A stretch of 64,000 nucleotides of DNA from an uncultured Eubacteriales bacterium (GTDB lineage Bacteria; Acidobacteriota; Aminicenantia; Aminicenantales; Aminicenantaceae): contig CAYVAT010000013.1 of assembly GCA_964449165.1 (NCBI GenBank), forward strand, positions 407-64,406, read 5' to 3'. The translations under genes and the position numbers were made by a program. Below are positions 5,771 through 27,746 of this stretch, piece after piece. The notes under the pieces were generated by a model, which was given only the letters and a program-made list of their open reading frames with translations, made no database searches and was not told the origin of the DNA. Numbering within the stretch: position 1 is the stretch's first letter; each line of letters begins with the position of its first letter.

Positions 5771-5872
5771 AGAAGACAGTATGTTAGGTCGAAAAAAGTA
5801 GTTCACAGGTTAAAGCAATAAAATTGGATATCGTGCCCATATTATTAAAAATTAAATAAGGAGAGAGAAAAG

Positions 5873-6229: not shown

Positions 6230-6264
6230 AGATCGATATAGGAAAATAAAAGGAGGAAGGAATA

Positions 6265-6486
6265 ATGGCTAATTATACGTTGGATACCCTAGGACTTAAA
6301 TGCCCACAGCCGGTTCTGAAGGTGGCTGTGAAGGCAAAGGAATTGCAGCCGGGAGACATGTTGGAGGTTATAGCCGACTGTGAGTCTTTTCCTAAAGATA
6401 TTGAGGCATGGTGCCAGAAGACAGGAAAGACGCTGCTTTTCTGTAATACAGAAGGTGGTAAACATACAGCACAGATTCAATTCTAG
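6265..6486 (+). CDS. TusA-like sulfurtransferase (SirA/YedF/YeeD family)
   Basis: 73 aa; LDTLGLKCPQPVLK carries the diagnostic CPxP motif of TusA-family sulfur carriers. RBS AAGGAGGAAGG lies upstream. Confidence 0.75.
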   Translation: MANYTLDTLGLKCPQPVLKVAVKAKELQPGDMLEVIADCESFPKDIEAWCQKTGKTLLFCNTEGGKHTAQIQF

Positions 6487-6606
6487 TTTTCAGTGATTGA
6501 TAGTTAGTAGCTAACAGGGATCGGATTCAGCCTTCCTGTCGGCTATTTCTATCAGCTTGTCGGAGTGGAGGCTGCATTGCCGGAGGAACAAGAAAAGGAA
6601 GAAAAG

Positions 6607-11155: not shown

Positions 11156-12265
11156 ATGACTAAGATGTTGAAAATAGATAAAGCGATTTCAGACGGGACC
11201 AGAGATTTTCTGCGCTATCTTCTGGACAGCAAGAACGTGCGTAGTGTGGCAGTGCTGAGGAGAGATAGGACGTCTGGCTGGGTCAGCTACAGCCTGATCT
11301 CTGATCCGGAAAAGATAGAGGAAGCGGTCCCTTTTTCTCCGGTCATGCCATACAACGCGGGTGAGTATCTCTCTCGCCTCACATCCAAGGGACCGTTCGA
11401 TAAGCCTGTTGCGGTGGTATTGCGTCCATGCGAACAGCGAGCGTTTGTGGAGCTTGTAAAACGACAGCAGGGCAGTTTGGACAATATCATAACAATCAGT
11501 TCGGTTTGTCCGGGAGTTTATCCTTTGAAAACATTTGTTCGTGAGAACGAGGACAAGCTGTTTAAGGATTACTGGTCGGTGGTAGCTGATGGAAAACAAC
11601 CTGAGGGGATCCGGGACACGTGTTCGTTCTGTGAGCATTTTGTTCCGGCTGAAGCCGACATTGTCATACCCATAGCAGGCGAGAAGGATACGGGCAAAGA
11701 ATGCAAATTGTTCGCGAATACCGAAAAGGGAGCTGAACTACTGAAGGGGATAGATGGGAAAATACAGGAATCTGAACTGGAGACAAAAGGAACCGAAGCT
11801 ATCCGGCAGTTGCGGAAGGAAAACGAAGAAAAGATGCTGGCCGATCTGGGGAAAAAGTTATCGGGATTAGATGGGCTGGTAGAAATGTTCAGTACGTGCA
11901 TTGGCTGTCATGGATGTCGGTCGGTTTGCCCGATTTGTTACTGCCGCTTATGTGAATTTGATTCTTCTCGAAGTGAATACGAGGCACGAAAATATGAAAT
12001 CGAACTGCGCAAGAAGGGGGGCGTAAGAATACCCCCGGGCTCCATAGCCTTTCAGATAGGTCGGATGATCCATATAGGCCTTTCCTGTGTGAGCTGCGGG
12101 ATGTGTAGCGACGTGTGTCCCGCCGATATCCCGGTTGCAAATATTTTCAGGAAAGCGGGAAAGGCGGTCCAGGATGTGTTCGAATACATTCCTGGAAAGG
12201 ACCTTGAGGATAGTATCCCTGTCACGACATTTGAAGAAGAGGAATTGAGAAGTGTTGAGGATTAA
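11156..12265 (+). CDS. FrhB/FdhB/FpoF-family protein, paralog 2
   Basis: RPCEQRAFVELVK; CIGCHGCRSVCPICYCRLC; CVSCGMCSDVCPADIP. It aligns with paralog 1 throughout. Confidence 0.65.
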   Translation: MTKMLKIDKAISDGTRDFLRYLLDSKNVRSVAVLRRDRTSGWVSYSLISDPEKIEEAVPFSPVMPYNAGEYLSRLTSKGPFDKPVAVVLRPCEQRAFVELVKRQQGSLDNIITISSVCPGVYPLKTFVRENEDKLFKDYWSVVADGKQPEGIRDTCSFCEHFVPAEADIVIPIAGEKDTGKECKLFANTEKGAELLKGIDGKIQESELETKGTEAIRQLRKENEEKMLADLGKKLSGLDGLVEMFSTCIGCHGCRSVCPICYCRLCEFDSSRSEYEARKYEIELRKKGGVRIPPGSIAFQIGRMIHIGLSCVSCGMCSDVCPADIPVANIFRKAGKAVQDVFEYIPGKDLEDSIPVTTFEEEELRSVED

Positions 12266-12729
12266 GAGGGTGGTGAATCAGATTTTATTATCTTTGTTAT
12301 TTCATCTACAATTCCCGGAATTTTACTTTTTACCCCAGGAGTACATTCCTCGCCAAACGTAGTATTATCTTCTATTTCTATTGCATAAATTTCAATAATT
12401 TGAGGTATTTTATATCCCAGCTTCCTTCCGAGTTCAATTGCAGTTCTAATATTCACTCCATGTGAGTATGATGGAGTTGAAAAAGTGCCTATATCTTCCA
12501 GGTTTAGTTTGTAAAGGGTGCCAGGTGTTTCTTTTTCTGTTTTTATGGAGTCGATGATGATAAGTCTCTCGTATTCACCAATATAGTCAAGCAGTGAAAT
12601 TCCCGCCAGACTTGTTTTTATCACTTCAATATCAGGAAGGGAAAGTTTCTCTATCTCATTTGCCACACAGATGCCTACCGAATCATCTGTCAGAATTGGG
12701 TTTCCAACTCCCAATATAAGAGTTTCCAT
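12262..12729 (-). CDS. [NiFe] hydrogenase maturation endopeptidase (HycI/HybD/FrhD family)
   Basis: ILGVGNPILTDDSVGICVANEI...IIIDS is typical of hydrogenase C-terminal processing proteases. It sits directly downstream of the large subunit. Confidence 0.8.
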   Translation of the reverse strand: METLILGVGNPILTDDSVGICVANEIEKLSLPDIEVIKTSLAGISLLDYIGEYERLIIIDSIKTEKETPGTLYKLNLEDIGTFSTPSYSHGVNIRTAIELGRKLGYKIPQIIEIYAIEIEDNTTFGEECTPGVKSKIPGIVDEITKIIKSDSPPS

Positions 12730-12786
12730 TTTTGAAGACGGGAAATATCAATCCACAGTAATGAGCGTGAAGAGATCGAAATATTT

Positions 12787-14250
12787 TTACGACCTTCTGA
12801 TAGTGTCTATTATATTCGCTTTATGATCTCTAATGTTGACTTCGAGAGGCATATGCCCGGGCAGTGAATGAGTAGCACAGGCAAGGCAAGGGTCATATGC
12901 ACGGAATGCCATTTCTACCATGTTAAGTAATCCCTCAGATACCTTTCCCTCCTTTATGAGCCCTTTTGCCGCTTTCTCTATTGACATACATATCGAAGCA
13001 GCATTGTTAACTGTAGCAACAATTAAATTGACGTCTGTAAGAACACCTTTATCGTCTGTCTTGTAATGATGATAGAGAGTACCTCTTGGTGCTTCTACTA
13101 CGCCAATCCCTTCATCAGGAACAGCGGTTGGGATACTTCTAACATCGGGGTCGAGAATTTCCTCGTCCTGGGCTAACTCCAAAAGCCTTTCAGCTGCATA
13201 GAGAAGCTCCACTAGCCTTGCCCAATGATAGGCAAGAGTGTTGTGTGCTGGCTTACCACCCAAGATATTATACATTTTTTCATATTCTACTTGAGCCAGT
13301 GGCGTTGCCATACCATCGGACGCATTGAGTCTTGCAAGAGGAGCTACTCGATAAACTCCGCTGTCCTTTCCATCAACGAATCCCTTCCAGCCGACACCTT
13401 TAAGATATGGAAATTTTATGTAGCTCCACGGCTCAACATGCTCCTCAATATGATTCAGATACTCCCGAGACTTAAACTTGGCAAACTCCTTACCTTCAGG
13501 GTCAACTACTCTAATATCTCCGTCATAAAAATTGACTTTATTGTTCTCATCAACAAGTCCCATATAATATGTTTTGTGTTTGTAAATATCTCCCACAATG
13601 ACATCTACATACTCTTTGTTTTTGAGAACAATGTCTTCAAAAGCTTTCAAAGCGAATTTGGCAAATTCTATCGCATCTTTCCCTATTTGGATATATTCTT
13701 CTCTATCTTCTTTGGTAACCCCCTTGGATACACCCCCAGGAAGATTACATACGGGGTGAATAACCCTGCCTCCCTGCTTTGTAATGATGTTGCGCAGCCG
13801 CTTTCTGATATCTATAACCTTCTTGCCCGCGTCAAGACCAACTTTCTGAATGACTCCCAAAATATTCCTCTCTCCTGCGGGTGCCTGTGGTCCAACAACA
13901 AAATCAGGTCCCCCAAGGAAGAAGAAGTGGAGAGTATGGTCTTCAGCCATGAAAGCAGAATTAATAAGCTCTCTTATCTTCTTGGCCGGTGACGGAGGGG
14001 TTACATGGAACAAATCATCAAGCGCCTTGCCAGATGCCATATGATGGGTAGTGGGACATACGCCACATATCTTGGGAGTGATTCTCGGCATTTCCTCTGC
14101 CATGCGTCCTTCAGAAAATTTCTCAAATCCCCTCAGCTCAGGAACTTGAAAAAAAGCCTTCTCCACATTTCCCTCGTTATTAAGAAATATTTCTATCTTC
14201 CCATGACCTTCAAGCCTTGTTATTGGGTCTATCGTTATTCTTTTTGCCAT
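12787..14250 (-). CDS. mvhA: [NiFe] hydrogenase large subunit, Mvh/group-3c-like
   Basis: N-terminal RLEGHGKIEI and PKICGVCPTTHH; C-terminal DPCLACATHSLPGH (the Ni-Fe ligating CxxC pair); RBS AGGGAGA. Confidence 0.85.
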   Translation of the reverse strand: MAKRITIDPITRLEGHGKIEIFLNNEGNVEKAFFQVPELRGFEKFSEGRMAEEMPRITPKICGVCPTTHHMASGKALDDLFHVTPPSPAKKIRELINSAFMAEDHTLHFFFLGGPDFVVGPQAPAGERNILGVIQKVGLDAGKKVIDIRKRLRNIITKQGGRVIHPVCNLPGGVSKGVTKEDREEYIQIGKDAIEFAKFALKAFEDIVLKNKEYVDVIVGDIYKHKTYYMGLVDENNKVNFYDGDIRVVDPEGKEFAKFKSREYLNHIEEHVEPWSYIKFPYLKGVGWKGFVDGKDSGVYRVAPLARLNASDGMATPLAQVEYEKMYNILGGKPAHNTLAYHWARLVELLYAAERLLELAQDEEILDPDVRSIPTAVPDEGIGVVEAPRGTLYHHYKTDDKGVLTDVNLIVATVNNAASICMSIEKAAKGLIKEGKVSEGLLNMVEMAFRAYDPCLACATHSLPGHMPLEVNIRDHKANIIDTIRRS

Positions 14251-14329
14251 TTTATCTCCCTTTTCCTCAAAGTGATGTAAATTGTCTTATAAACTTAACA
14301 AACAATAAAAAATTGCTCCAAGCATTCAT

Positions 14330-15310
14330 CTATGCCATTCTCTTCCTTTTTAACAGCGAAGAAGGCAAACTATACATATAGAAAAGACCTGCCGGATCTA
14401 CTATCTGGTCGATTAACTTCTTCGTGTCTTCCTCTGTCATCTTCTCTTCTTCTTCCACGCCTATTATGGATGCAATTGCTGATAATCCTTTTGCCCCCTG
14501 GTCTACTACTTCCTTTGTCGGTCCAAAACATCCGCGACACGGCATATTTGCATTTATGCATCTCTCACCACAGCCGCTCCTGGTTACAGGGCCTAAGCAG
14601 ATAAGCCCTTCTTCTAAAAAACACTTCTCAGGGTCTGGTATTATCTCGTAGGGTCTCTTTATTTCCTTTATTGAGAGTTTATCCGGTTTTGTCTCTCCAC
14701 GTGGGCAAGTTTCACACAAGGATTTATCAGGTGCGAGAACTGCTCCCTTTTCGGGAAGCTTACCTTCCAATATAGCTGTTACCGCATTCATAATTAAATC
14801 TGGTGGCGGTGCACATCCAGGAAGATAATAATCAACATCGATTGTCTGGTCCAGTGTCTTGACTGTATCATAGAACTCAGGAAGCGTAAGCTCACCCTCA
14901 GGAATATTTGTTTTTTGTTGTGGCACTATCCCATTGGGGTTTGCTATAGAGGGTACTGTCTTGTAAACCCTCGTGAAAATTGTTTCCCTATTCCAAAAAT
15001 TTGCAAGCCCTGGTATTCCACCTAAATGAGAACAGGACCCAAACGCGACTACAAGCCCAGATTTCTTTCTCAATAGTTTCACCATCTCTTCCTGTTCTTC
15101 TGTTCTAATAGCACCGTTTATGAAACTCACTGCTATTTCTCCATCGCCCATCGCCTCCACATCCTTTTTCTTAAAGTCCAGTGCGACTGGCCAGAACGCT
15201 ATATCCACTGCCTCCACTACTTTTAATATATCCTCATTAAGGTCGACAATAGCTTCCTCACATCCACCACATGAAGCGCACCAATAAAATGCTACTTTTG
15301 GTTTAGCCAT
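14330..15310 (-). CDS. mvhG: [NiFe] hydrogenase small subunit, Mvh/group-3c-like
   Basis: VAFYWCASCGGCEE at the N-terminus (proximal cluster), with further Cys motifs. RBS AGGAGG. Positioned between mvhD and mvhA. Confidence 0.8.
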   Translation of the reverse strand: MAKPKVAFYWCASCGGCEEAIVDLNEDILKVVEAVDIAFWPVALDFKKKDVEAMGDGEIAVSFINGAIRTEEQEEMVKLLRKKSGLVVAFGSCSHLGGIPGLANFWNRETIFTRVYKTVPSIANPNGIVPQQKTNIPEGELTLPEFYDTVKTLDQTIDVDYYLPGCAPPPDLIMNAVTAILEGKLPEKGAVLAPDKSLCETCPRGETKPDKLSIKEIKRPYEIIPDPEKCFLEEGLICLGPVTRSGCGERCINANMPCRGCFGPTKEVVDQGAKGLSAIASIIGVEEEEKMTEEDTKKLIDQIVDPAGLFYMYSLPSSLLKRKRMA

Positions 15311-15348
15311 AATTGCCTCCTTCTAAAATAGACATCATTTCTACTTAT

Positions 15349-15750
15349 TTAGGATAATTCTAGGGGACCTAAATTTTTTACAGTTTCTGCCATTTCATTT
15401 GCTACTTTTGCAAATCTCTCTCCTTCGCCTGCTGCAACCCAGTCCAATCTAACTCTTTCTTCTTCAATCCCCAGCTGCTTCAGGGTATTCTTCAAAAGAT
15501 GTGCTCTCCGAAGTGCCTTATAGTTTCCTGTTTTGTAATGGCAGTCCCCGGGATGGCATCCTAAAATTAACACTCCGCTTGCGCCCTCTTTTAATGCTTG
15601 TATCACAAGCTCTGGATCTACACGACCGCTGCACATAACCCGAACGATTCTTACATTCGCAGGATAATTCAATCGTGCGCCCCCAGCCTTATCTGCTCCT
15701 TCGTATGAACACCAATTACATAGAAAACTAACGATTGTTGGCTCATTCAT
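15349..15750 (-). CDS. mvhD: MvhD ([2Fe-2S] subunit linking hydrogenase and HdrA)
   Basis: TIVSFLCNWCSYEGADKAG...RVMCSGRVDP...GCHPGDCHY; RBS AAGGGGG; 4-nt overlap with the hdrA stop. Confidence 0.8.
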   Translation of the reverse strand: MNEPTIVSFLCNWCSYEGADKAGGARLNYPANVRIVRVMCSGRVDPELVIQALKEGASGVLILGCHPGDCHYKTGNYKALRRAHLLKNTLKQLGIEEERVRLDWVAAGEGERFAKVANEMAETVKNLGPLELS

Positions 15751-17669
15751 CTTACTACCCCCTTAATTTCAGCAAATATTTGCTCCTTTGTGAAGTGCTT
15801 TGCTCTCGCTGCACCCGACGGACAGGCTGATACACAAGTTCCACACCCTCTACAAAGAGTCTCATCTACAACTGCAATCTTTTTTTCTACATCCCGAGAT
15901 ATGGCAGAGTATGGACATAGAACAATACATACGTTACAGCCACTGCATAAATCTTCACTTATCTCTGATACCTTTGCTTCTAACTCAAGTTTTTCACCAG
16001 GTATAAGTCTTGAAAGTATTCTTCCTGCAGCGGCTCCTCCTTGAGCCACTGCATCTCCAATATCCTTTGGTCCCTGACAGCTCCCTACTGCAAAAACGCC
16101 TTCAAGTGCTGTAGCAAAAGGCTTCATCAATGTGTGCTCCTCAGCAAAAAAGCCCTGGTCATCTCTGGCTATATCAAGGAGTTCGGCTATTTTTTCAGTA
16201 TCTTCGTTAGGCTCAACTGCAGGTGCAAGTACTACCATATCTACGGATATCTCTTTTCCATTTGTTCCCACTTTTATTTTTTCTCCTTCATCAGTAACAG
16301 TCACATCCTCTCCACTTCTTATAAACTCTATACCTTTCTCCACAGCCTTCTTATGCATCATTTGATGTTCTTTCTTCGGAAGACATAGGTCAGTATAGAA
16401 GTGATGCATCTTTACCGCGGGCAATTTTTCTTTCATAAGATGGGCCAAGGTGAGTGAATACATACAGCATATGCCTGAGCAATAGCCCTTCTCTTTCCTG
16501 CCAACACAGTGAATGAAAGCTATGGATTTTGGCTCCTTCCCGTTCTTTAATTGAATCTTCCCTCCTGTTGGTCCATTTGAGGCATTCAACCTCTCTAATT
16601 GCATGGCTGTTAATACATTGTCATATTTTCCATATCCATATTGAGGAAGTTCTTTGGGATCAAAAAGTGCAGAGCCCGTAGCTAAAATAATTGCACCTAC
16701 GTTCTTCTCAATTGTCTTGTCCTCGTCATCATAATTAATGGCGTCAAAGGAACAACTTTCTTTGCAGATGCTGCATTCCTCTCCCTTGAATCTCTTGCAG
16801 TTATTCTTATCTATGACAGGCACATTAGGAAGACCACCAGCGAACGGAATATATATTGCTTTCCGGGATGACAATCCCTCATCATATTCATTGGGCACTT
16901 CCACAGGACACGGCTCAAAACATGCATCACATCCAATGCAGGCTTCTTCGTTTACGTATCGGGCTTTCTTCTTAACCTTGACAGTGAAATTCCCAAACGA
17001 CCCAACAACTTCCTCTAGCTCGCTATAAGTGAATGCTTCTATATTCTCTTTTTGAAGGACTTCTTGCAGTTCAGGTGCTATCATGCAAGGTGCACACTCC
17101 AAAGTTGGGTAAACTTCTTCAAATCTTGCTGTAAGCCCACCAATACAGGGGCTCTTTTCCACGAGATAGACCTTCCTGCCCTTCTGTGCGAGTGATAGAC
17201 ATGCCTCTAATCCAGCTACCCCTCCCCCTACTACTAGAACATCAGGCTGAATATCAATTTCCTTTTTCTCTATAGGTTCTTGTAAAGAAGTCCTGTTTAT
17301 TGCAGCTATAACAAGACTTTTTGCTTTTTCAGTTGCAGCAGATTTTTCAGCGGTAACCCAGGCACACTGCTCCCTTATGTTCGTCATCTGCATAAGATAA
17401 GGATTCAGCCCTGCTTCCTCACAAGCCCTCATAAATTTAATCTCGTACTGCTTTGGAGTGCAGGCAGCAATCACAACTCTTGAAAGCTTCTCATTCTTTA
17501 TTTCTTCTTTGAGAAATTTTAGCCCTTCTACTGAACACAGGAGATTATGACTCTTTGCCACTGCTACATCCTCGATGCCCTTTACTTCATTGGCAATAGC
17601 ATCTACATCTACCTTGTCTCCTATGTTTGGTCCACATTTACACACATATACGCCTATCTTTTCAGCCAT
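15747..17669 (-). CDS. hdrA: Heterodisulfide-reductase subunit A-like flavoprotein, canonical full-length HdrA architecture
   Basis: IGVYVCKCGPNIG, VLVVGGGVAGLEACL, inserted ferredoxin CIGCDACFEPCP/CSICKESC, IHCVGRKEKGYCSGICCMY, C-terminal CSGCNVCIVLCP/CRGCGTCVSACPSG; RBS AAGGAGG. Confidence 0.85.
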   Translation of the reverse strand: MAEKIGVYVCKCGPNIGDKVDVDAIANEVKGIEDVAVAKSHNLLCSVEGLKFLKEEIKNEKLSRVVIAACTPKQYEIKFMRACEEAGLNPYLMQMTNIREQCAWVTAEKSAATEKAKSLVIAAINRTSLQEPIEKKEIDIQPDVLVVGGGVAGLEACLSLAQKGRKVYLVEKSPCIGGLTARFEEVYPTLECAPCMIAPELQEVLQKENIEAFTYSELEEVVGSFGNFTVKVKKKARYVNEEACIGCDACFEPCPVEVPNEYDEGLSSRKAIYIPFAGGLPNVPVIDKNNCKRFKGEECSICKESCSFDAINYDDEDKTIEKNVGAIILATGSALFDPKELPQYGYGKYDNVLTAMQLERLNASNGPTGGKIQLKNGKEPKSIAFIHCVGRKEKGYCSGICCMYSLTLAHLMKEKLPAVKMHHFYTDLCLPKKEHQMMHKKAVEKGIEFIRSGEDVTVTDEGEKIKVGTNGKEISVDMVVLAPAVEPNEDTEKIAELLDIARDDQGFFAEEHTLMKPFATALEGVFAVGSCQGPKDIGDAVAQGGAAAGRILSRLIPGEKLELEAKVSEISEDLCSGCNVCIVLCPYSAISRDVEKKIAVVDETLCRGCGTCVSACPSGAARAKHFTKEQIFAEIKGVVR

Positions 17670-18350: not shown

Positions 18351-19895
18351 ATGGTATCAGATGGAGAAATTGGTTTGAGACAGGAAGATAAAGTAACAAA
18401 AGAATTCTTAGAAAATATCTTAGAGAGCATGGAAGGGGGAGTGCTTACTGTAGACAAAAATGGCAGGATCACCTCGTTTAACCGTTCTGCTGAGGAAATT
18501 ACTGGTTTCAAGAGAGAGGAAGTACTGAATAAGGAATGTTGTCATATTCTTAAGACCGATCTCTGTGAAGAATTATGTCCTTTAGAAGAGATCTTAAAAG
18601 TTGGAAAGACAGTCCACAATTATGAGATTATGATTGCCAGCAAAGATGGGAATAAGGTTCCTGTAAACATAACGACTTCAGCATTACGATCCAGCAATAA
18701 TGAGATAATTGGCGCTATAGAAAACTTCAGGGATTTGACCAAACATAAAGGATTATGGGGGAAGCTGCGCCAGGAAAGAAACAAAGCACAGCAGTACCTC
18801 AACATTGCGGGAGTTATAATCATTGCTATTAATGACAAGGGAATAGTCACCCTTATCAACAAGAAGGGGTGCGATGTCTTGGGTTACAGAGAAGAAGAGA
18901 TCATCGGTAAAAACTGGTTTGATTTATGTGTTCCTGAAGCAGAGAAAAAAGAAAGAGAGGATACTTTTAAAAAAGTGATGGCAGGAAAAATACAGGAAGC
19001 TGAAGACTACGAAAACTCAATTCTGGCTAGATCTAGTGAGGAAAGGATTATCGCATGGCACAATACGACACTCACAGATGAAAAAGGTCATATCGTTGGC
19101 ACTCTTAGCTCAGGAGAAGACATCACCAAGCGCAAACAAACAGAGGAAGAATTGATCAGATCTGAAAAACTAGTCTCTTTAGGTCAGCTAGCTGCCAGCG
19201 TTGCTCACGAAGTGAATAATCCATTGGCCGGTATTATGGTTTATATCAAGCTTCTTATCAAGAAGTATAAAGAAAAGAAACTGCAGACAGGAAAAACTGA
19301 AGAGCAGCTTTTGAAAATGGAAAAAGAACTGGATAGGACTACCCGAATAATCAGAAATCTTCTCGATTTCGCCCGCCAATCAGAACCGGCCATAAGACCA
19401 GTCGAAATAAATAAAGTAGTAGAAGCCGCTTTGTTATTAGTCGGACATCAAATCAGCCTTGAAAACATAAAGCTCGAGAAGGAATTAGATACTGAGCTTC
19501 CTCTTGTTCTTGCGGACTTTGATAAAATCCAACAGGTATTGATAAACATCATCATGAACGCGATTCAGGCGATGCCTGAGGGGGGCAACTTGACAGTCTC
19601 TACATCGGTTGCTAAAAACGTTAAAATCAATCAGTTTCTCAAAGATACTGTTAGGATTGAAATCAAGGATACAGGAGTGGGAATTCCCAAAGAAAACTTA
19701 AGCAAACTTTTTACGCCTTTCTTCACTACTAAAGAAAAAGGCAAAGGTGTGGGGCTAGGACTCCCTGTTGTTCATGGAATTATTGAGCAGCATAAGGGAA
19801 AGATAGAAGTAGAAAGTGAACCCAACATAGGTACAGCATTCACGATATATCTGGAGGTAATGAATGAGGAAAAAGACAAAAATACTCGTAGTTGA
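18351..19895 (+). CDS. Cytoplasmic PAS-domain sensor histidine kinase
   Basis: Two PAS-like segments, then the H-box SVAHEVNNPLAGI and an HATPase region with N/G boxes (NAIQAM, DTGVGIP, GKGVGLGL). No TM segment. The Cys cluster ECCHILKTDLCEELCP lies in the first PAS. Confidence 0.8.
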   Translation: MVSDGEIGLRQEDKVTKEFLENILESMEGGVLTVDKNGRITSFNRSAEEITGFKREEVLNKECCHILKTDLCEELCPLEEILKVGKTVHNYEIMIASKDGNKVPVNITTSALRSSNNEIIGAIENFRDLTKHKGLWGKLRQERNKAQQYLNIAGVIIIAINDKGIVTLINKKGCDVLGYREEEIIGKNWFDLCVPEAEKKEREDTFKKVMAGKIQEAEDYENSILARSSEERIIAWHNTTLTDEKGHIVGTLSSGEDITKRKQTEEELIRSEKLVSLGQLAASVAHEVNNPLAGIMVYIKLLIKKYKEKKLQTGKTEEQLLKMEKELDRTTRIIRNLLDFARQSEPAIRPVEINKVVEAALLLVGHQISLENIKLEKELDTELPLVLADFDKIQQVLINIIMNAIQAMPEGGNLTVSTSVAKNVKINQFLKDTVRIEIKDTGVGIPKENLSKLFTPFFTTKEKGKGVGLGLPVVHGIIEQHKGKIEVESEPNIGTAFTIYLEVMNEEKDKNTRS

Positions 19896-21231
19896 TGATG
19901 AAGATATAGTAAGAGAATCACTCCGCGATTGGCTGAGCAGTGTTGGCTATAAAGTGGAAATTGCCTCCTCTGGAGAGGAAGCCCTCCGGATAATCAAACA
20001 GAAAAAGATCAAAATTATGCTTGCTGACCTCATCATGCCGGGCATGGACGGTATCGAACTGATGAAAAAGGCAAGAGAAATAGTTCCAACACTCTCAACG
20101 GTCATTATAACAGCCCATGGAACGATTCAAACAGCGATAACCGCGATCAGAGAAGGCGCTCATGATTACGTAGAGAAGCCGTTCTGCCCGGAAAAGGTCG
20201 AACTTATCATAAAGAATCTGGTGGAACATCAGGATCTGGTTGAGGAAAATATATCTCTTCGGCGGAAGATTGAAGCAAGATTCCACTTTGAGGGCATCAT
20301 CGCAAAGAGCCCCAAGATGTTGAAGATAATTGAACTTATTAAAACAGTAGCGCCGACTAATGCCACCATACTGATTATTGGGAGAACCGGAACGGGCAAG
20401 GAAGTCATTGCACGGACTATTCATCATCAAAGTCCGCGTCGAAGCAAACCTTTCATCGCCACAAGTTGCGCATCCCTTCCGGAAAGTCTGCTGGAAAGTG
20501 AACTTTTCGGCCACGAAAAGGGCTCTTTTACAGGGGCAATAGGAAGAAAAAAAGGCAAGTTTGAAGCTGCAGACAGAGGCACTTTATTCCTTGATGAAAT
20601 AGGCGAGATAAATCCCAACACCCAGATCCATCTCCTAAGAGCACTTGAGGAGAAGAAAATTACCAGAGTGGGTTGTAATGAAGAAATTGGTGTTGATGTA
20701 CGTATCATTGCTGCCACAAATAGAGATTTGAAAACTATGGTTGAGCAGGAGAAATTCAGAGAGGATCTGTATTACCGGTTGAATGTGGTAACTATAGACC
20801 TCCCTCCGCTTAAGGATAGGATGGAGGATATTCTACCGCTGGCAGAGCATTTTTTGAAGAAGTATGCTCAAGAAAATAATAAAAGCATCAAAAAATTTTC
20901 TCCTGAAATAGTAGAATTTATGCTGAATTATTCATGGCCTGGTAATGTTAGAGAGTTAGAGAACATGATCGAACGCGGTGTGATTATATCGAAGAATACG
21001 ACAATCACTCTGGGCGAACTTCCACATGAAATTATTCACCCAGCTCCTAAAGAAGGAAAAACCATCGAGGCGGTCGAGAGAAATCACATCATTAGTGTGC
21101 TCGAAGAGACAAAAGGCAATGTTTCAAAGGCAGCTAAGATACTCGGTATTCGGCGGACGACCCTTTATAACAAGCTGAAAAAATATAATTATACTGTCCA
21201 TAAATTAGACACGAATTGTCCAATTAATTAA
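19864..21231 (+). CDS. Sigma-54-dependent response regulator (NtrC family: receiver, AAA+, HTH)
   Basis: KILVVDDEDIV receiver; Walker A GRTGTGKEV; ESELFGHEKGSFTGA (GAFTGA motif); C-terminal HTH AAKILGIRRTTLYNKLKK. Confidence 0.85.
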   Translation: MRKKTKILVVDDEDIVRESLRDWLSSVGYKVEIASSGEEALRIIKQKKIKIMLADLIMPGMDGIELMKKAREIVPTLSTVIITAHGTIQTAITAIREGAHDYVEKPFCPEKVELIIKNLVEHQDLVEENISLRRKIEARFHFEGIIAKSPKMLKIIELIKTVAPTNATILIIGRTGTGKEVIARTIHHQSPRRSKPFIATSCASLPESLLESELFGHEKGSFTGAIGRKKGKFEAADRGTLFLDEIGEINPNTQIHLLRALEEKKITRVGCNEEIGVDVRIIAATNRDLKTMVEQEKFREDLYYRLNVVTIDLPPLKDRMEDILPLAEHFLKKYAQENNKSIKKFSPEIVEFMLNYSWPGNVRELENMIERGVIISKNTTITLGELPHEIIHPAPKEGKTIEAVERNHIISVLEETKGNVSKAAKILGIRRTTLYNKLKKYNYTVHKLDTNCPIN

Positions 21232-21341
21232 CACCTTTTCATTTTTTGGCCATTCTTCGGCAATCTTGTCCTTTATCATAAATCATTTATTTTTAGAGCG
21301 TTAGCGCTTTTCCTAAAAAAATTTTTGAACTGCGTCTATTT

Positions 21342-21357
21342 TGGCACGCTGCTTGCA
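21342..21357 (+). promoter_or_regulatory. Sigma-54 (-24/-12) promoter
   Basis: TGGCACGCTGCTTGCA is an exact match to TGGCAC-N5-TTGCA, about 100 nt upstream of the receiver gene at 21458 and downstream of the NtrC-type activator. Confidence 0.7.
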
Positions 21358-21457
21358 CTATAAATGAAATGAGATGACTAATTCCAATAGGATAGTCACT
21401 GTCGCCAAAGCTGTCCTGGTGGAAATTGACTAAAAAAACAAAAATTGGAGGTTAACA

Positions 21458-22252
21458 ATGAAAAAAGAAACTATGTTGGTTGTAGAAGATGAGGATATTA
21501 TGCGGGAGGCATTATCCGATTACTTCTCTGACGGGGGCCATAAAGTTGATACCGCCAATAATGGGGATAACGCATTGGAAAAATTTAATTTAGAAGATTA
21601 CAACGTCATGATAGTCGATCTTAAATTACCCGGGCGTGATGGGCTTTCCGTGCTGAAGGAGATTAGAGCGAAGAATCCGAAGGCAAAAGTTATTATCATC
21701 ACGGCTTATCCCTCGATTGATACTGCAAAAGAGGCTATACGTGGTGGTGCGCTTGACTACTTACCAAAACCTTTTGAGCTGGACTATCTTGAAACCATAA
21801 TCAACCGATCTTACGAAGTTGAAATAGTACCTACACCGCCTGTTGAAGAACCAATAGTTGAAGAGAAAATTGTAACTCCATGCATCTGGATGCAAGCTGG
21901 CTTAGTAAAAAAACGGATGTGTACGCTCGGTTATCAATGCAATAATGCGTGTAAGTTTCATGCAGCAATGATGAAAAAAGAGGAATTCAGGAATGATCCA
22001 AGGATTAAACCTTTTCTTGACAAACTTAACTCTCAAATAGGAAGGAAGCAGTGCAGATATACTATGAGTGGAGAAATTGCTCTGCGATCCTGCGATAGGC
22101 TTTACCGCTGCGAGAGCTGCGAATTTCACCAGACAATCGAGGATGAGGTAGACCGCCAACTTGCCATTAAGGCCGCAAATCAAAAAAGGAAGCAGGCCAA
22201 AATGTATGGCCGGGTGGCAACGATGCATAGTCCATCCCGAAGTGACCACTAA
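21458..22252 (+). CDS. Response-regulator receiver protein with a C-terminal cysteine-rich domain of unknown function
   Basis: CheY-like receiver (LVVEDEDIM...DLKLPGRDG...YLPKPF). The ~130 C-terminal residues carry about 10 Cys (CIWMQ...CTLGYQCNNACKFH...CRYT...SCDRLYRCESCEFH) and no recognizable DNA-binding motif. Confidence 0.65.
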   Translation: MKKETMLVVEDEDIMREALSDYFSDGGHKVDTANNGDNALEKFNLEDYNVMIVDLKLPGRDGLSVLKEIRAKNPKAKVIIITAYPSIDTAKEAIRGGALDYLPKPFELDYLETIINRSYEVEIVPTPPVEEPIVEEKIVTPCIWMQAGLVKKRMCTLGYQCNNACKFHAAMMKKEEFRNDPRIKPFLDKLNSQIGRKQCRYTMSGEIALRSCDRLYRCESCEFHQTIEDEVDRQLAIKAANQKRKQAKMYGRVATMHSPSRSDH

Positions 22253-22455: not shown

Positions 22456-22989
22456 TTATTTTCTATCTTTTTTTAGATTTTCCCTAATCATTCTTATCCC
22501 GTCAGGAGAATTGATAGGCATCTCCTTGAGCTGAGCCTTTATTTTTCTTGTGTCTAAATAGAACTTGTAGCTATTCTTTTTGTGGACATAGATTAAATCT
22601 ATTTCAGGATTCCCCAAAATAAGAGTTATGATTGTTTGTCCAATATCACCCAAAGGCTTCCGGTCGATATGGCTGTGCTGGAAATCGGCTTTGACTTTAG
22701 TCCCTTCTCCCTTTTTGGATTTTATGGAGAGGTGACCATTTGCTGCATTGGCGGCTTGTGATAAGAGAGACAGTCCTAGGCCAAATCGGCGAACCGTTTT
22801 AGAAGTGTAAAAGGGATCAAGCACCTTTTCCATGGTTTGCTTATCCATACCCATACCGTTGTCGGTGATTTCGATAGACAGAAAATCTTTCTCTTTGTCT
22901 TCTTTTATCCTTATTTCAATCTTATCGGCTTTGGCTGCCACAGAATTTTCGACGATGTCTAGAATGTGCAAAGAGAGATCTTCCATCAA
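22456..22989 (-). CDS. Small GHKL-type ATPase (anti-sigma-factor/Ser-kinase-like HATPase_c protein)
   Basis: LHILDIVENSV...ITDNGMGMD...GLGLSL are the N, G1 and G2 boxes of a histidine-kinase-like ATPase lacking a DHp domain. Confidence 0.6.
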   Translation of the reverse strand: MMEDLSLHILDIVENSVAAKADKIEIRIKEDKEKDFLSIEITDNGMGMDKQTMEKVLDPFYTSKTVRRFGLGLSLLSQAANAANGHLSIKSKKGEGTKVKADFQHSHIDRKPLGDIGQTIITLILGNPEIDLIYVHKKNSYKFYLDTRKIKAQLKEMPINSPDGIRMIRENLKKDRK

Positions 22990-23012
22990 AACCTCAGCCT
23001 GGATTATTCAGG

Positions 23013-23744
23013 TTAGTGAATTAATTTTCTCCCATCTTCATTTTTCAAGGCTTTTTTTATTTCGGCCACTGTGCCGTCCTTGAGCAAGAATGATGTAAAG
23101 CTTTTTCCGATATCATCGGGATAATGGGCATCTGAAGAGCAGGTGATCGGATAATCCTTTGAATACCTTTTCTTTGCCTCTTCGGAAGTGATTGCAGGAG
23201 AAATTTCTAAAGCATCCAATTCCAAATTATCCGGGATGAACCCCAGTTGGCCGATGATGCTGAAAGATTCTCTATCTATATGGGAGGCGATCGCTATTCC
23301 GTCGAGAGAGTGAATGATTTTGATGATTTTTTCAAGAGGAATAGTCGTAGCTCCAATCAAGAGTTTATTATTGAAACCAAGCACTTCCTCTTTTTCATTC
23401 ACGATGACTTGCATCCCGAAGGCTTCTTCATCATTTTCTCCAGGCAACTTATCATAGACATGCTCCTGCAGTTTTAGAGCGTTTTCTATTTCGTCAAAAA
23501 GTGCCAAGACATGAACTTCTTCTTGAGAGGTCACTTCCATCCCGGGGAAAACATTAATATTCATCTTCTTGGCAGCGTTCATTATGGCCAGAGAATTTTC
23601 AGATGAATTATGATCACAGATGCCTATGATATCTATTTTTTTTTTCTTTGCCGCCTTGAGTATTCTCTTTGGAGACATATCCAGTTCAGTACAGGGAGAA
23701 AGGCAGGTGTGGATATGCAAGTCCGCTTTGAAAGGTCTGAGCAT
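23013..23744 (-). CDS. PHP-domain metal-dependent phosphoesterase
   Basis: ADLHIHTCLSPC...IIGICDHN fits the PHP (polymerase/histidinol-phosphatase) His-rich motifs. Confidence 0.65.
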   Translation of the reverse strand: MLRPFKADLHIHTCLSPCTELDMSPKRILKAAKKKKIDIIGICDHNSSENSLAIMNAAKKMNINVFPGMEVTSQEEVHVLALFDEIENALKLQEHVYDKLPGENDEEAFGMQVIVNEKEEVLGFNNKLLIGATTIPLEKIIKIIHSLDGIAIASHIDRESFSIIGQLGFIPDNLELDALEISPAITSEEAKKRYSKDYPITCSSDAHYPDDIGKSFTSFLLKDGTVAEIKKALKNEDGRKLIH

Positions 23745-23747
23745 GAA

Positions 23748-24089
23748 TTAATCTTTTAAACTTATCAATTCATACAATTTACCCGAAACTTCAAAGGCCA
23801 TTTCTTCACTGCCAAGGAGGGGCAAATTTTCCTCCTTTGCTTTTTGAAGCGTGTTTTCATCAGGTTCTCGGTTATTGACTATGATTATTCCAGACAGGTC
23901 TTTCAGTTTGGCCACAGCGATAATATTCTGATGGGTCTGAAGAGTGATCCAGAGATTGTTTTCTTTGCTGTTGGCAATCACATCACTAAGAAGATCGCTC
24001 GTGTATCCACTTGTAACCTCTACATCCAACTTATCTTGGCCTGTCAAAACTTTAAGCTGTAATTTTTCAATGATCTCTTTAAGTTTCAT
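23748..24089 (-). CDS. DRTGG-domain protein
   Basis: 113 aa resembling the DRTGG/CBS-associated domain (TSDLLSDV...LWITLQTHQNIIAVA), and paralogous to 25905-26270. Confidence 0.5.
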   Translation of the reverse strand: MKLKEIIEKLQLKVLTGQDKLDVEVTSGYTSDLLSDVIANSKENNLWITLQTHQNIIAVAKLKDLSGIIIVNNREPDENTLQKAKEENLPLLGSEEMAFEVSGKLYELISLKD

Positions 24090-25462
24090 TTTATCGCCTT
24101 TCCTTTTTTGCTTGTTTTATTGACGGTAGACTTGGATTGAGTTAAAAAAGCAGATTTATTAAGCAATTTTGAAAATTCTTGGGTGAGTTTTTTTAACCTT
24201 CGGGGAAGATTGAAAATACAGTCAGTGAGTTCTGCTTCTCCTTTAACCACGTCTTCAGCAAAGGTTAAGCAAGTGGGAGCACCACATGCTCCGCAGTCAA
24301 TTTTGGGCAGTGATTCGTAGATATCCTCTTTTTCTTTTCTCTTCTTTATTGCTTTGGCTAAATCTTTATCGAGAGGTTTGAGGGGGCGGGGCTCCAGTTT
24401 TCCATCTAAGAAAAAGTATTTCTGGTTATAGAGCTTTCGTACCTCCCTGATGTCTGGACAAGCTTTTATTTGTTCGAACTCTAAGGTCTCGATCAATTTC
24501 AGAATTTTGTTGTAAGAAATATAAATATTTTGCACTGTCAAAGAGCCTCCGACACACCCTTGAGGGCAAGAATAGGCTTCGACGAAGTCAATGTTTCTCA
24601 GTTTTCCTCTTTCAATATCATCAAAGACTTTTAAGATTTCAGCTAGACCTGAAACAGCCAGGGAGTTTTTCATTCTCAAGGTTCGGCAGATGCCTCCAAC
24701 CATTGCCCATCCAATTCCCAGAATGCAGATGCTCTCCAGTGCTTTCCGGTAGCTGCCTTTTTCTATGCCTTCCATAGCCGAAAGAAGAGGTGGGTAAATG
24801 TCTGAGATAGAGATGGCTCCGTCTATGTAAGATTTCCCTCTTTCTGCAGGCTGTCTGATAGATATCATTTTCACCGGGCATGGTGTGAGATAAAAGATTC
24901 CGATCTCTTTTTCTTTAAGTTTTAGTTGTTTTGATTTTTCCTTTTTGATTTCTCGAGCAGCCAATTCTCGTGGAGTATCAATGGGTATAACTTGGTCGAT
25001 GAGGCCTGGATATTTGACCTGGATTAAACGCACGATAGTCGGACATACATTAGAAATAAGCGGCTTGGGACCCTTATATTCTCGGAGATATTCCTGGATG
25101 GCGAAACTAACTTCTCCGCAGGTAAACGCCAGGTCAAAAGCATCATCGAATCCCAGTTTTTTTAATCCGACGAGGATTTTCTCTGGCAGAATTTCTCTTC
25201 CGAATTGAGCATATAGAGCAGGAGAGGGCATGGCAACTGTGTGGCGGAATTTAGTGAGTTCTCCAAAGGGATCTGTCAAAGGGATGATGGCGTTGTGAGG
25301 ACAAACTGTGATACATTCTCCACAATCGATACATTTTTCTTCGATGATGGTTGACTTTCCATTTCTGATCCTGATGGCTTGAGTGGGACACACCCGCAAA
25401 CATTTCATACGGCCATGACACTTTTCCGGATCAATCCGGATGGAATGAAAGTATTGATTCAT
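24086..25462 (-). CDS. [FeFe]-hydrogenase-like protein with degenerate H-cluster motifs, an N-terminal 2x[4Fe-4S] ferredoxin and a C-terminal CxxCx4C..C Fe-S domain; probably sensory or non-catalytic
   Basis: CHGRMKCLRVCP and CIDCGECITVCP. H-domain motif equivalents: L1 NVCP (versus TSCCPxW), L2 TPCPVKM (versus MPCxxK), L3 EAYSCPQGCVGG (versus ExMACxGGCxxG). The C-terminus CGACGAPTC...C resembles the RnfB-type Fe-S domain. Confidence 0.6.
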   Translation of the reverse strand: MNQYFHSIRIDPEKCHGRMKCLRVCPTQAIRIRNGKSTIIEEKCIDCGECITVCPHNAIIPLTDPFGELTKFRHTVAMPSPALYAQFGREILPEKILVGLKKLGFDDAFDLAFTCGEVSFAIQEYLREYKGPKPLISNVCPTIVRLIQVKYPGLIDQVIPIDTPRELAAREIKKEKSKQLKLKEKEIGIFYLTPCPVKMISIRQPAERGKSYIDGAISISDIYPPLLSAMEGIEKGSYRKALESICILGIGWAMVGGICRTLRMKNSLAVSGLAEILKVFDDIERGKLRNIDFVEAYSCPQGCVGGSLTVQNIYISYNKILKLIETLEFEQIKACPDIREVRKLYNQKYFFLDGKLEPRPLKPLDKDLAKAIKKRKEKEDIYESLPKIDCGACGAPTCLTFAEDVVKGEAELTDCIFNLPRRLKKLTQEFSKLLNKSAFLTQSKSTVNKTSKKGKAIK

Positions 25463-25908
25463 TTTTTTTCTGTTTTATCCAGGCAGATCGTTATCTCTAA
25501 TGACGTTCCTTTGCCAGGGATTGAAGAAATTTCAAATTTATCAGCATTTTTTTTAATATTGGGAAGTCCCATGCCTGCGCCAAATCCCATCTCTCGCATT
25601 TCCTCGGTGGCGGTCGAAAAACCTTTCTCCATGGCCAAATCTACATTCTCAATCCCAGGACCTTCGTCTTCGAGCTTAAAATGAAGTTTCTCAGGAGTAA
25701 TGTTCAGAGTGAGCACACCTCTGTGAGCATACATAACAACATTCATTTCTGCCTCATAGGAGGCGATGGCTGCACGGACGATGACAGAATGGTCGATACC
25801 AATCTCCTGGAGAATTTCTTTGATACTTGTGGATGTCCTTCCTCCATTGCTGAAATCACCGCCTTTGATTTCAAAGCGATGAGATAATTTATTCTTGTCG
25901 CTCATCAT
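25459..25908 (-). CDS. Small GHKL-type ATPase (HATPase_c-only protein), paralog of 22456-22989
   Basis: LEDEGPGIENVDLAMEKGFST...GFGAGMGLPNIKK (G1/G2 boxes). The likely start is MMSDKNK, since the ORF-track N-terminus overlaps the upstream DRTGG gene. Confidence 0.55.
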   Translation of the reverse strand: MMSDKNKLSHRFEIKGGDFSNGGRTSTSIKEILQEIGIDHSVIVRAAIASYEAEMNVVMYAHRGVLTLNITPEKLHFKLEDEGPGIENVDLAMEKGFSTATEEMREMGFGAGMGLPNIKKNADKFEISSIPGKGTSLEITICLDKTEKK

Positions 25909-26270
25909 CGTTTTTTTGGGGAGAGGCCACTTACACCTGGAAGACCATGACTGAAGAGAAGGCCACAAGCTGTGTACATCATGTATTTGGTTAATAGAAG
26001 GGGGATTCTTTTTTCTCTGGCTAGCTCGATTCCCGTTTTATCTGGCTTTTTGCCCCGGACATACACAATAGCTTTGGCATCTATTATATTTGCTGTCCTG
26101 ACAGATTGAGCATTGGATAAACCAGTCAGAAGCAGAATTCCTGGTTTACCAAAAGCTAAGACATCGCTCATCAGGTCAGATCCTCCTGCAAATTTGATTT
26201 CCATGTCAAGACAGTCAATTCCGCTGATGACCTCAGCCTGAAGGAGTTCCTTGATTTCTTTTAAGGTCAT
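25905..26270 (-). CDS. DRTGG-domain protein
   Basis: 121 aa; SDLMSDVLAFGKPGILLLTGLSNAQSVRTANIIDAKAIVYVRG is paralogous to 23748-24089. It is the first gene of the minus-strand cluster. Confidence 0.5.
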   Translation of the reverse strand: MTLKEIKELLQAEVISGIDCLDMEIKFAGGSDLMSDVLAFGKPGILLLTGLSNAQSVRTANIIDAKAIVYVRGKKPDKTGIELAREKRIPLLLTKYMMYTACGLLFSHGLPGVSGLSPKKR

Positions 26271-26458
26271 TTTAGTTTTCTGGGGCGTTTCTTCTAAGTA
26301 AAGGAATGACTTTGGCTATTTTTATGTTGGCCGACGCCATATTCGCCCTTACTCTGGCTTTCTATGAATCTACCTTTTAGGAATTCATATGATAACTGTT
26401 CGGGTAGTCAGAAGTCAATATTAGTAAGCAGAGAGAAGGCATGCAAATCTAATGGGGA

Positions 26459-26893
26459 TCAGTTGCTTTTTCTTATTCCCGTACCCACATCTAGTAAGCA
26501 TATGTTTTCTGGAATATTGCAGGGATTTTTTCCATTTTGAAATCGAAGCATCTGTTGGGCAAGACGGCTGAATTTTTCTCTGAATTCTTCAAGTTCAGCT
26601 TGAGCCAGAGGCGTATCGATTTTATCAACGACATTGATTCTAGCCAGTGTATTGGTCCGATAAATCCCATTTGGATTATCCAGATCCATAGAAAATTCAC
26701 CTGCTTTCTTCGCATAAGGGAACTTCAAATAGGTCTAGGGTTCAACATGCTCACGGATATAATCGGTGCACTCATCGCATTTGAAATCTTCATAAGAACC
26801 GTCGACAGACATCATCCTCAGCTTTCCATCATAAAGATCGAGCAAACCATCTTCAGTCACAGTTCCTAAAAATCCTGTGTTTATAACACCCAT
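26459..26893 (-). pseudogene. Decayed fragment of a [NiFe] hydrogenase large-subunit gene (internal segment only, with an in-frame TAG)
   Basis: The minus-strand translation ...DGKLRMMSVDGSYEDFKCDECTDYIREHVEP*TYLKFPYAKKAGEF...IYRTNTLARINVVDKIDTPLAQAELEEF aligns with mvhA residues ...DGDIRVVDPEGKEFAKFKSREYLNHIEEHVEPWSYIKFPYLKGVGW...VYRVAPLARLNASDGMATPLAQVEYEK. The stop at 26735-26737 replaces the conserved Trp. There are no N- or C-terminal metal-binding regions. Confidence 0.65.
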
Positions 26894-27053
26894 GGATTTA
26901 ACGACTTCCAAATATTATATTAGGCCGAACAAATATCTTCACTGATCCTGGGTGACATTATTCAGGAATCAAAAATGTATTTAAACTTGCTTTTTTGCTG
27001 GAAAAAAAAGTAAAATGAGAAAAATTAAATCATAAAGAAAAGAAGGAGGAAGA

Positions 27054-27746
27054 ATGAGAAGAAAAATTCCAATCATTCTTGGATTAGCTTTTCTCATGTT
27101 CATCATGCAAACCTGCAAGCATAATCCAGAAGAGGGCCTTCTAAAAAGATATTTTCATGCTGTTTCTTTGAATGATTTAACAACCATGTCCACCATGGCA
27201 CTGGAGCCACTGACATTGGATGTTAAGAGTTGGAATATTACCAGCGTCAGCGAAGAAGTTATTGAGCCTGCATCGCTTCCAGAGCTGAATAAGAAGGAAT
27301 TGGAATTTAAGAAGAAATTGGAGGATCATGTAGGAGTCACCCTCGATGCAAGAGATGCTTTGGATGATGCTGAGTTTGAGCGGGAAAATGCCCGGACGAG
27401 AGCGGCGAGGAATGCAGCCCGGGCAAAGGTAAACGAACTCCAGACCAAGTATGATGAAATATATGAAGAACACAAAGAGCTTCAGAAGCAATACAACGAA
27501 TCCAAAGCTGCTGCGGCCAGAGAGGAAGAAATAACTCTCTTTTCCCTGGGTGCGGGAGAGCTTCCCAATGTCAGAGATTTAACAGGTAATATCCATTCCA
27601 AAGAGGTCGATGTGAAGATTGTGAGCAAGGATGGAGAAGAAAAGACCTATAAATTTTATTTGAGAAGATACGACTTAAGAGACGAAGCCATGGGCCTCGA
27701 TCGCAAGGGAAGATGGGTCATCATCCAATTCGAGCCCGTGGGCTGA
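27054..27746 (+). CDS. Hypothetical secreted or lipoprotein with a coiled-coil region
   Basis: N-terminal signal-like IPIILGLAFLMFIMQTC, a charged coiled-coil middle, and a strong RBS AAGGAGGAAG. Confidence 0.5.
   Translation: MRRKIPIILGLAFLMFIMQTCKHNPEEGLLKRYFHAVSLNDLTTMSTMALEPLTLDVKSWNITSVSEEVIEPASLPELNKKELEFKKKLEDHVGVTLDARDALDDAEFERENARTRAARNAARAKVNELQTKYDEIYEEHKELQKQYNESKAAAAREEEITLFSLGAGELPNVRDLTGNIHSKEVDVKIVSKDGEEKTYKFYLRRYDLRDEAMGLDRKGRWVIIQFEPVG

Follow-up and report, generated by a model that had tools for sequence, protein, structure and literature searches.

We analysed a stretch of 64,000 nucleotides (the window) from contig CAYVAT010000013.1 of an uncultured bacterium of the Aminicenantaceae, in which a relic of hydrogenase genes sits in a 784-bp gap between two divergent units. 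One of these units is an intact cluster on the minus strand (22456..26270) of DRTGG, HATPase_c, [FeFe]-hydrogenase-like, DRTGG, PHP and HATPase_c genes, as assigned by Pfam, whose products show 97-100% amino-acid identity to those of the related locus L005. On the plus-strand side, a lipoprotein-like gene (27054-27746) is followed by tRNA-Lys and tRNA-Glu. Both margins of the gap consist of retained intergenic DNA, namely 141 bp next to the lipoprotein-like gene (26913..27053), which borders the left edge of the largest deletion described below (~26913-26916), and the upstream region of the minus-strand cluster (26271..26456, minus strand), which is 98.5% identical to L005 9007-9192.

The [FeFe]-hydrogenase-like protein (24086-25462, minus strand, 458 aa) carries H-cluster cysteines in SNVCP, PCPVK and CPQGCVGG and, at its C-terminus, a PF04060 Fe-S domain, but no detectable PAS domain. 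Where catalytic enzymes have TSCCP this protein has SNVCP, with Val for the first (proton-relay) Cys, and we take the H-cluster cysteines together with this Val to fit the label "sensory" given to the cluster by the first-pass annotation, in the light of the HydS literature. The best sigma-70-like match upstream of the cluster is a promoter-like TTGACT-N18-TATCAT (26389-26418, minus strand), directly downstream of the relic. A raw scan for the promoter consensus was not above chance (2 sites found versus 2.2 expected), so that the promoter call is supported by conservation: TTGACT-N18-TAnnAT (TA(C/T)CAT) and its spacer are found upstream of the first DRTGG gene (DRTGG1) in most aligned related loci, with or without a hydrogenase. 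Across most loci of the L005-L053 alignment the conservation of the spacer (CTTCTGG-ATACCTGAATAGTTA) is striking and suggests that it is a putative operator as well as part of a promoter. In the window, a divergent PAS histidine kinase, a sigma-54 activator and a response regulator (18351-22252) separate the sensory cluster from an mvhA operon. In L009, L011, L015, L037, L043, L045, L048, L050 and L053 an orthologue of this mvhA follows the sensory cluster in the same orientation, ~6-7.5 kb beyond the last gene of the cluster, and in L001 and L002 the DRTGG/HATPase/PHP genes come directly before an operon of HdrA-like, MvhD, MvhG and MvhA genes. Given these varied gene orders, the sensory cluster appears linked to NiFe hydrogenase genes in several layouts.

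The large-subunit remnant spans 366 bp or ~122 codons (window 26916-26551, minus strand) and corresponds to residues 210-331 of a 480-aa orthologue, with no start codon and neither metal-binding motif. Its frame runs from 26914 downward on the minus strand (YLEVVKSMGVINTGFLGTV...EHVEP*TYLKFPY...LARINVVDKIDTPLAQAELEEFREKFSRLAQQ, the asterisk marking a stop; around this stop it reads YLEVVKSMGVINTGFLGTVTEDGLLDLYDGKLRMMSVDGSYEDFKCDECTDYIREHVEP*TYLKFPYAKKAGEFSMDLDNPNGIYRTNTLARINVVDKIDTPLAQAELEEFREKFSRLAQQ...) and is open over 58 and 89 codons on either side of this single stop. Using phmmer against PDB, the relic aligned to residues 217-327 of MvhA (5odc_F, E = 3e-21), to 9sfi_g (E = 9e-21) and to the equivalent parts of 9sw2_F, 7t2r_D and 5xf9_D; the matching chains include FrhA-named ones (E about 1e-21). 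Identity to the orthologous gene in related loci was 75-90% by tblastn (E down to 4e-76) and 75-83% at the amino-acid level to full-length orthologous large subunits, with nucleotide identities of 98.1% to L005 7931-8296 and 86.8% to L006 7573-7936. The homology of the relic to [NiFe]-hydrogenase large subunits is thus far beyond chance. A Pfam scan of the relic gave no match to the NiFeSe_Hases model, which is uninformative on homology since this model matches the family mainly at its N-terminus.

What survives is the middle of the gene. We found no homology in any frame 5' of the relic, which begins at the equivalent of residue 210 with a TAA directly 5' of its first homologous codon, and the homology stops at the equivalent of about residue 331-336, before DPCxxCxxH and the protease cleavage site; the first ~209 and the last ~150 codons are missing, and neither an RxCGxC nor a DPCxxC motif occurs in the relic. 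When the proteins of the intact L006 operon were searched against the window with tblastn, the only matches were residues 211-336 of the large subunit (82.5% identity, E = 2e-63) and residues 54-73 of the maturation protease (E = 6e-5), and no small-subunit remnant was detectable in the window by this search. No Shine-Dalgarno-like sequence precedes either of the two TTG-started ORFs of the relic (58 aa and 89 aa), Rfam and tRNA scans returned nothing within it, and there is no terminator-like site in 26200-27100. The relic is a [NiFe]-hydrogenase large subunit by descent, that is, a pseudogene, and not a functional member of the family. These results sharpen the first-pass annotation, which had aligned about 145 codons with the middle of mvhA: the match is real, but its hydrogenase part amounts to ~122 codons (26916-26551), and it begins 23 bp upstream of the limit set there at 26893. 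The string then quoted for the relic (EHVEPWSYIKFPY, LARLN) is the sequence of the mvhA gene in the window, the relic itself having EHVEP*TYLKFPY and LARIN. The absence of both metal-site ends (N-terminal RxCGxC and C-terminal DPCxxC) was seen correctly, and the homology search that it proposed places the relic at large-subunit residues ~210-336.

The last ~25 of those 145 codons (MLRFQNGKNPCNIPENICLLDVGTGIRKSN*, 26553-26459) do not belong to a large subunit at all; they are scraps of a maturation-protease gene, so that the earlier description of the flanks as non-coding is not quite right for the 3' side. The first scrap (26520..26553, minus strand) covers approximately codons 3-14 of the L005 protease ORF (97% identity to L005 8449-8482); these 34 bp of the protease 5' end are out of their original frame and abut the large-subunit remnant at the junction of a ~155 bp deletion. 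The second scrap (26459..26531, minus strand) consists of a piece from the middle of the protease (...IPENICLLDVGTGIRK) fused to the final codons of the gene with their stop, and is bounded by deletions of ~100 bp and ~361 bp; the tail of the previously proposed ORF (..NIPENICLLDVGTGIRK..) aligns here to approximately residues 52-74 of the protease of the lost operon, as represented by L006. In total ~33 codons of the protease gene survive in two pieces, about 90 bp. They match the protease of the lost operon and not the HycI-like gene present elsewhere in the window. The parent protease matches Pfam HycI (4e-24) and NCBIfam hydrog_prot above its cut-off, and scores 127 bits for frhD against a cut-off of 134.95.

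The stop within the relic is a TAG (26735..26737, minus strand) in place of an invariant Trp codon, as the first-pass annotation had reported, and is TGG in L005 and in 17/17 intact orthologues. Against L005, the 121 codons that can be compared show five amino-acid-changing substitutions specific to the window (L8M, Y49C, W60*, G116S and P118L), all on residues invariant in the 17 orthologues, and one synonymous difference. Five changes at invariant residues with one synonymous change are what a sequence free of selection would be expected to show. A sequencing error is no relevant explanation of the TAG, which recurs in the independent assembly L061, and the gene lacks both of its ends anyway.

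To place the relic among its relatives, we scanned the [FeFe]-hydrogenase-like protein against one genome per species, yielding 49 loci, 26 of which are titled Ca. Aminicenantes (or Aminicenantales/Aminicenantaceae). At least 15 related loci (L006, L007, L012, L014, L019, L024, L025, L031, L033-L036, L038, L039 and L047) have an intact operon in this slot. It has the same orientation as the DRTGG/HATPase/[FeFe]-hydrogenase-like cluster, lies immediately before the first DRTGG gene and codes for three proteins: a small subunit of 308 aa (Oxidored_q6), a large subunit of 480 aa and a HycI/FrhD-type protease of 179 aa. The large subunit is uninterrupted in 15/15 of these loci and has RICGVC at residue 60 and DPCLSCATH at residue 447. 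An intact orthologue at this position, which the first-pass annotation had proposed to look for, is therefore present in 15 relatives. On its far side L047 has the same lipoprotein-like gene, two OMP genes and GH38 as the window, and L005, L007 and L012 share with the window a response regulator and a sigma-54 (NtrC-type) activator downstream; this synteny on both sides indicates that the loci of the window and its relatives are orthologous. The operon is patchy across Aminicenantes loci, and the slot is empty in L052 and L021, where the lipoprotein-like gene lies 355-408 bp from DRTGG1.

Several further loci were inspected individually. L007 and L013 are both on CP070825.1, a complete Aminicenantes chromosome with two copies of the sensory cluster; the L007 copy has the intact hydrogenase operon upstream, and L013, considered as a further protease relic, retains the last 54 protease codons only, with a run of N directly upstream, and was set aside as not interpretable. 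L020, L026 and L040 keep the protease with neither a small nor a large subunit upstream of it. The nearest homologues of the relic in protein databases (60-83% identity) are all partial Mvh-like large-subunit entries, and partial proteins of 150-260 aa had raised the suspicion of a naturally split or recoded large subunit; in L001-L004 they proved to reflect contig ends, frameshifts and one internal deletion. The frameshifted long-read assemblies ERZ250395xx and ERZ250396xx lie behind such 150-260 aa entries (L001 9400-11000; L003 9300-10800), and the internal deletion, of ~20 codons with a frameshift, is in L002 (7000-7110). Some of the short hydrogenase entries in databases may be real pseudogenes. 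P0017, a homologue of the lost large subunit on a 26312 bp contig, ends ...AIRAYDP, just before the first Cys of DPCxxC, and could have either a TGA-encoded selenocysteine (a [NiFeSe] variant) or a broken gene.

The closest relative of the window is L005, with neighbouring proteins 97-100% identical to those of the window, and it holds an earlier state of the same operon (state A). Its small-subunit gene is gone save for the last ~50 bp, and the DNA in its place includes an ISNCY-like transposase remnant (NCBIfam NF033594, 1e-19). Its large subunit is an open stump of 374 codons that has lost the C-terminal quarter and has changes at otherwise invariant positions, namely C65Y (the second Cys of RxCGxC, a Ni ligand), H16N and W67P; the protease ORF is still open. 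A blastn comparison resolved the window and L005 into five collinear blocks of 93-98% identity: window 27800-26913 with L005 5230-6117 (93%), 26916-26551 with 7931-8296 (98.1%), 26553-26520 with 8449-8482 (97%), 26531-26467 with 8571-8635 (94%) and 26456-25800 with 9007-9663 (98.5%). The four intervening deletions in the window (about 1817, 155, 100 and 361 bp) each have 3-5 bp of microhomology at the junction and together make up the whole 2433-bp length difference between the two loci.

An exact-protein look-up with the neighbouring DRTGG protein yielded 16 contigs in which it is identical. One of these, the JGI metagenome contig L061, matches the window over 2001 bp at 99.65% identity with seven SNPs and no gaps and carries all four deletion junctions and the TAG (state B, as in the window); the recurrence of this structure in an independent contig excludes an assembly artefact or read error. 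Exact-pattern scans of metagenomes for the double deletion junction gave no match, which is explained by a SNP at window position 26550 in L061, the sole other carrier. The L005-type allele is also present in five contigs of other samples (L054-L057 and L059). In L058 and L060 (state C) one large deletion (about 6120-8464 in L005 coordinates) has removed the IS remnant and the entire large subunit, and protease codons 8-65 are contiguous. States B and C cannot be derived from each other, and a junction internal to the protease (GAAAAAGCAACTGAYCCCC) is identical in L058/L060 and the window; this shared deletion points to common descent followed by separate erosion. In L058 and L060 the promoter-like element is kept, the DRTGG and HATPase ORFs are full-length and the [FeFe]-like gene is present from its start to the contig end, which indicates that the large-subunit remnant is dispensable.

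We also compared the deletion endpoints. The left endpoints in window/L061 (~26913-26916) and in L058/L060 (~3640 in L058) are at most 5 bp apart and the right ends more than 500 bp apart, and the unrelated insert of L005 begins at the same left point (L005 6117-6122). The region of the ISNCY-like remnant (L005 6118-7302) is also present in L054-L057 and L059, and L043 has a related element (5163-6549) with inverted repeats of ~56 bp; no homologue of L005 6118-6596 was found in any other locus. An IS terminus was considered as the shared left boundary and rejected: by comparison with the IS of L043, the inverted repeat lies at about L005 6597-6659 and not at 6118, which does not support a deletion anchored at an IS end. 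The near-identical left ends of the two deletions, the L005 insert at the same point and the patchiness of the operon might mean that the slot of the hydrogenase, from the lipoprotein-like gene to the promoter of the sensory cluster, is a hot spot of recurrent rearrangement whose left boundary is defined, a reading that we consider improbable. If it did hold, there could be a site-specific or structure-directed recombination point, or a hydrogenase module behaving like a cassette, and the putative H2-sensing [FeFe] cluster would be kept and would function without an adjacent NiFe enzyme.

We then compared the lost enzyme with the hydrogenase that the window retains. A paralogous operon of hdrA-like, mvhD, mvhG, mvhA and protease genes (12262..17669, minus strand, Pfam) is intact and is not the source of the relic. 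Its mvhA (12787-14250) encodes both KICGVC and DPCLACATH; KICGVC (13900-14100, minus strand) stands instead of the canonical RxCGxC at the N-terminal Ni-Fe site. This MvhA is ~40% identical to the relic over its length and ~46% identical to the intact orthologue of the relic. The top NCBIfam family is the same for both proteins; for the intact orthologue the top matches are VhuA (474 bits, cut-off 800) and VhuG (235 bits), both below their cut-offs. Its top PDB matches (9sfi_g, 9sw2_F, 5odc_F, 7t2r_D and 5xf9_D, 361-442 bits) mix a chain named "F420-reducing" (9sfi) with MvhA-type chains and 7t2r, and canonical FrhA and sulfhydrogenase chains reach about 110-120 bits only. No mvhD or hdrA gene was found beside the orthologous Aminicenantes operon, upstream of which, on the other strand, there is a gatCA or lipoprotein-like gene; the more distant homologues in L001 and L002 lie behind HdrA-like and MvhD genes. 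Because the two large subunits share their best matches (NCBIfam VhuA, PDB Mvh-type chains), they fall in the same broad class, and the sequences point to the lost gene having been a distinct, old paralogue within this group-3 Mvh/Vhu-like class, in a different type of operon. The suggestion that the relic came from a different hydrogenase group thus stands as far as a distinct, diverged paralogue is concerned (~40%/~46%), but not for the broad class, and the view that it is no recent duplicate agrees with 40% identity to the MvhA of the window versus 98% nucleotide identity to L005. Group 3b, 3c and 3d hydrogenases are the most abundant in a deep-sea seep MAG set (PMC6472368) to which Aminicenantes E29_bin47, with the loci L049 and L051, belongs.

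Other explanations of the relic have to be weighed against this evidence. That the gene is alive, with a TAG that is recoded or a mistake of sequencing or assembly, and with the remainder of the coding sequence in the flanks, would suit a frame that is open over 58 and 89 codons around a single stop; however, ~209 first and ~150 last codons and the small-subunit gene are absent, tblastn recovers residues 211-336 only, a TAA stands right upstream of the first homologous codon, the same TAG and deletions occur in the independent contig L061, and five of the 5-6 lineage-specific changes strike invariant residues. The missing metal-binding ends by themselves refute this explanation, to which we assign practically no probability. 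Just as negligible is the chance that the relic is a recent partial duplicate of the mvhA of the window (12787-14250), or a product of gene conversion from it. Both genes are of the Mvh/Vhu-like class and they lie 12 kb apart, yet the identity values refute the idea, with 40% at the amino-acid level to mvhA against 98% at the nucleotide level to the L005 pseudogene and 75-83% at the amino-acid level to the syntenic orthologues, and the protease scraps likewise match the lost operon and not the HycI-like gene of the window.

Import of the relic, for example by a mobile element, as opposed to decay in place, draws on the IS transposase remnant in the same slot of the sister allele L005 and on the patchy distribution of the operon among Aminicenantes loci. 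We nevertheless hold it to be very unlikely: the pieces run in exactly the order and orientation of the intact operon (middle of the large subunit; 5' end, middle and stop of the protease; promoter), both flanks have kept their synteny, and no transposase homologue was found near the relic in the window. Exaptation of the remnant, whether to give a small protein, a leader or a regulatory RNA, or to control the sensory cluster or the lipoprotein-like gene from upstream, might be read from its position between two divergent promoter regions and from the 99.65% identity between the window and L061; since the flanks are equally identical, this last value speaks for recency and not for constraint. 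L058 and L060 lack the large-subunit part, yet their promoter-like element and visible downstream genes are intact; the substitutions look neutral; and neither a Shine-Dalgarno-like sequence before the TTG-started ORFs nor an Rfam match was found. Such a role for the remnant seems to us hardly credible.

We conclude that window 26459-26916 is, with high confidence, a non-functional mosaic remnant of a three-gene operon for the two hydrogenase subunits, small and large, and a maturation endopeptidase; no observation spoke against its being a pseudogene. The first-pass proposal of a decayed hydrogenase remnant beside the sensory cluster is borne out by the intact operon in at least 15 relatives, the intermediate state of L005 and the collinear deletions. 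The ancestral operon would have had the divergent lipoprotein-like gene on one side and the promoter of the DRTGG/HATPase/[FeFe]-like cluster on the other and, judging from the order of events in the three alleles, was probably inactivated before the lineages of L005 and the window split; neutral deletional erosion may then have shrunk it. Only the DNA between the two flanking regulatory regions would have tolerated deletions, and erosion presumably spared both promoter regions because they are still under selection. The remnant itself probably does nothing. The cell would keep the paralogous Hdr-linked Mvh-type hydrogenase 9 kb away, and the sensory cluster is likely its own transcription unit, with its own promoter, independent of the lost enzyme.

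For annotation, the 58-aa and 89-aa ORFs of the window are to be flagged as pseudogene fragments and not as proteins, and a second hydrogenase, that of the lost operon, should not be credited to this genome on the 64 kb seen. In L061 (2076-2510; 52 aa and 89 aa), a public metagenome contig, both halves of the relic have been called as protein-coding genes, and these are pseudogene fragments too. In the Aminicenantes, a two-subunit Mvh-like NiFe hydrogenase would have been ancestrally linked to the cluster of the putative sensory [FeFe] hydrogenase; as the sensory cluster and the promoter-like element persist where the hydrogenase is lost, as here, or missing from the slot, as in other loci, the sensor does not appear to be dedicated to the lost enzyme. 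The three states of decay in near-identical lineages amount to a natural time series, from an uncultivated phylum, of how microhomology-mediated deletions erode a pseudogene.

Among known systems, the Mvh/Vhu hydrogenases of group 3c (5odc_F, 9sw2_F) are close to the intact orthologue of the relic, which aligns with MvhA-type chains from end to end (E = 1e-122 to 1e-130). Unlike them, it is not a VhuA equivalog and its operon has no mvhD or hdrA, and the window keeps a dead quarter-gene. The NiFe large subunit of HydABCSL (7t2r_D, E = 8e-120), which we take to be part of the electron-bifurcating enzyme of Acetomicrobium mobile, likewise ranks high among structural relatives of the intact orthologue, and the two systems resemble each other in having a NiFe small/large pair encoded near an [FeFe]-hydrogenase-like protein; in contrast to HydABCSL, the cluster of the window is without HydB- or HydC-like (NuoF/NuoE) genes, and its [FeFe]-like neighbour stands among regulatory-type genes (DRTGG, HATPase, PHP). 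With the HycI/FrhD/HybD maturation endopeptidases the relic shares a tail that matches residues 52-74 of the operon protease, but it lacks the complete ~150-aa domain with metal-binding residues, and one of its pieces is out of frame. Erosion of bacterial pseudogenes follows a deletional bias, often with inactivation initiated by an IS and then microhomology-mediated deletions. An IS remnant in the sister allele, nested collinear deletions, a nonsense mutation and substitutions of invariant residues are all features that the present locus has in common with this process, from which it does not differ in kind; what is unusual is that three successive states are seen among near-identical lineages. 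The relic is a fresh and unusually well documented example of an ordinary process of gene loss, and is not surprising in kind.
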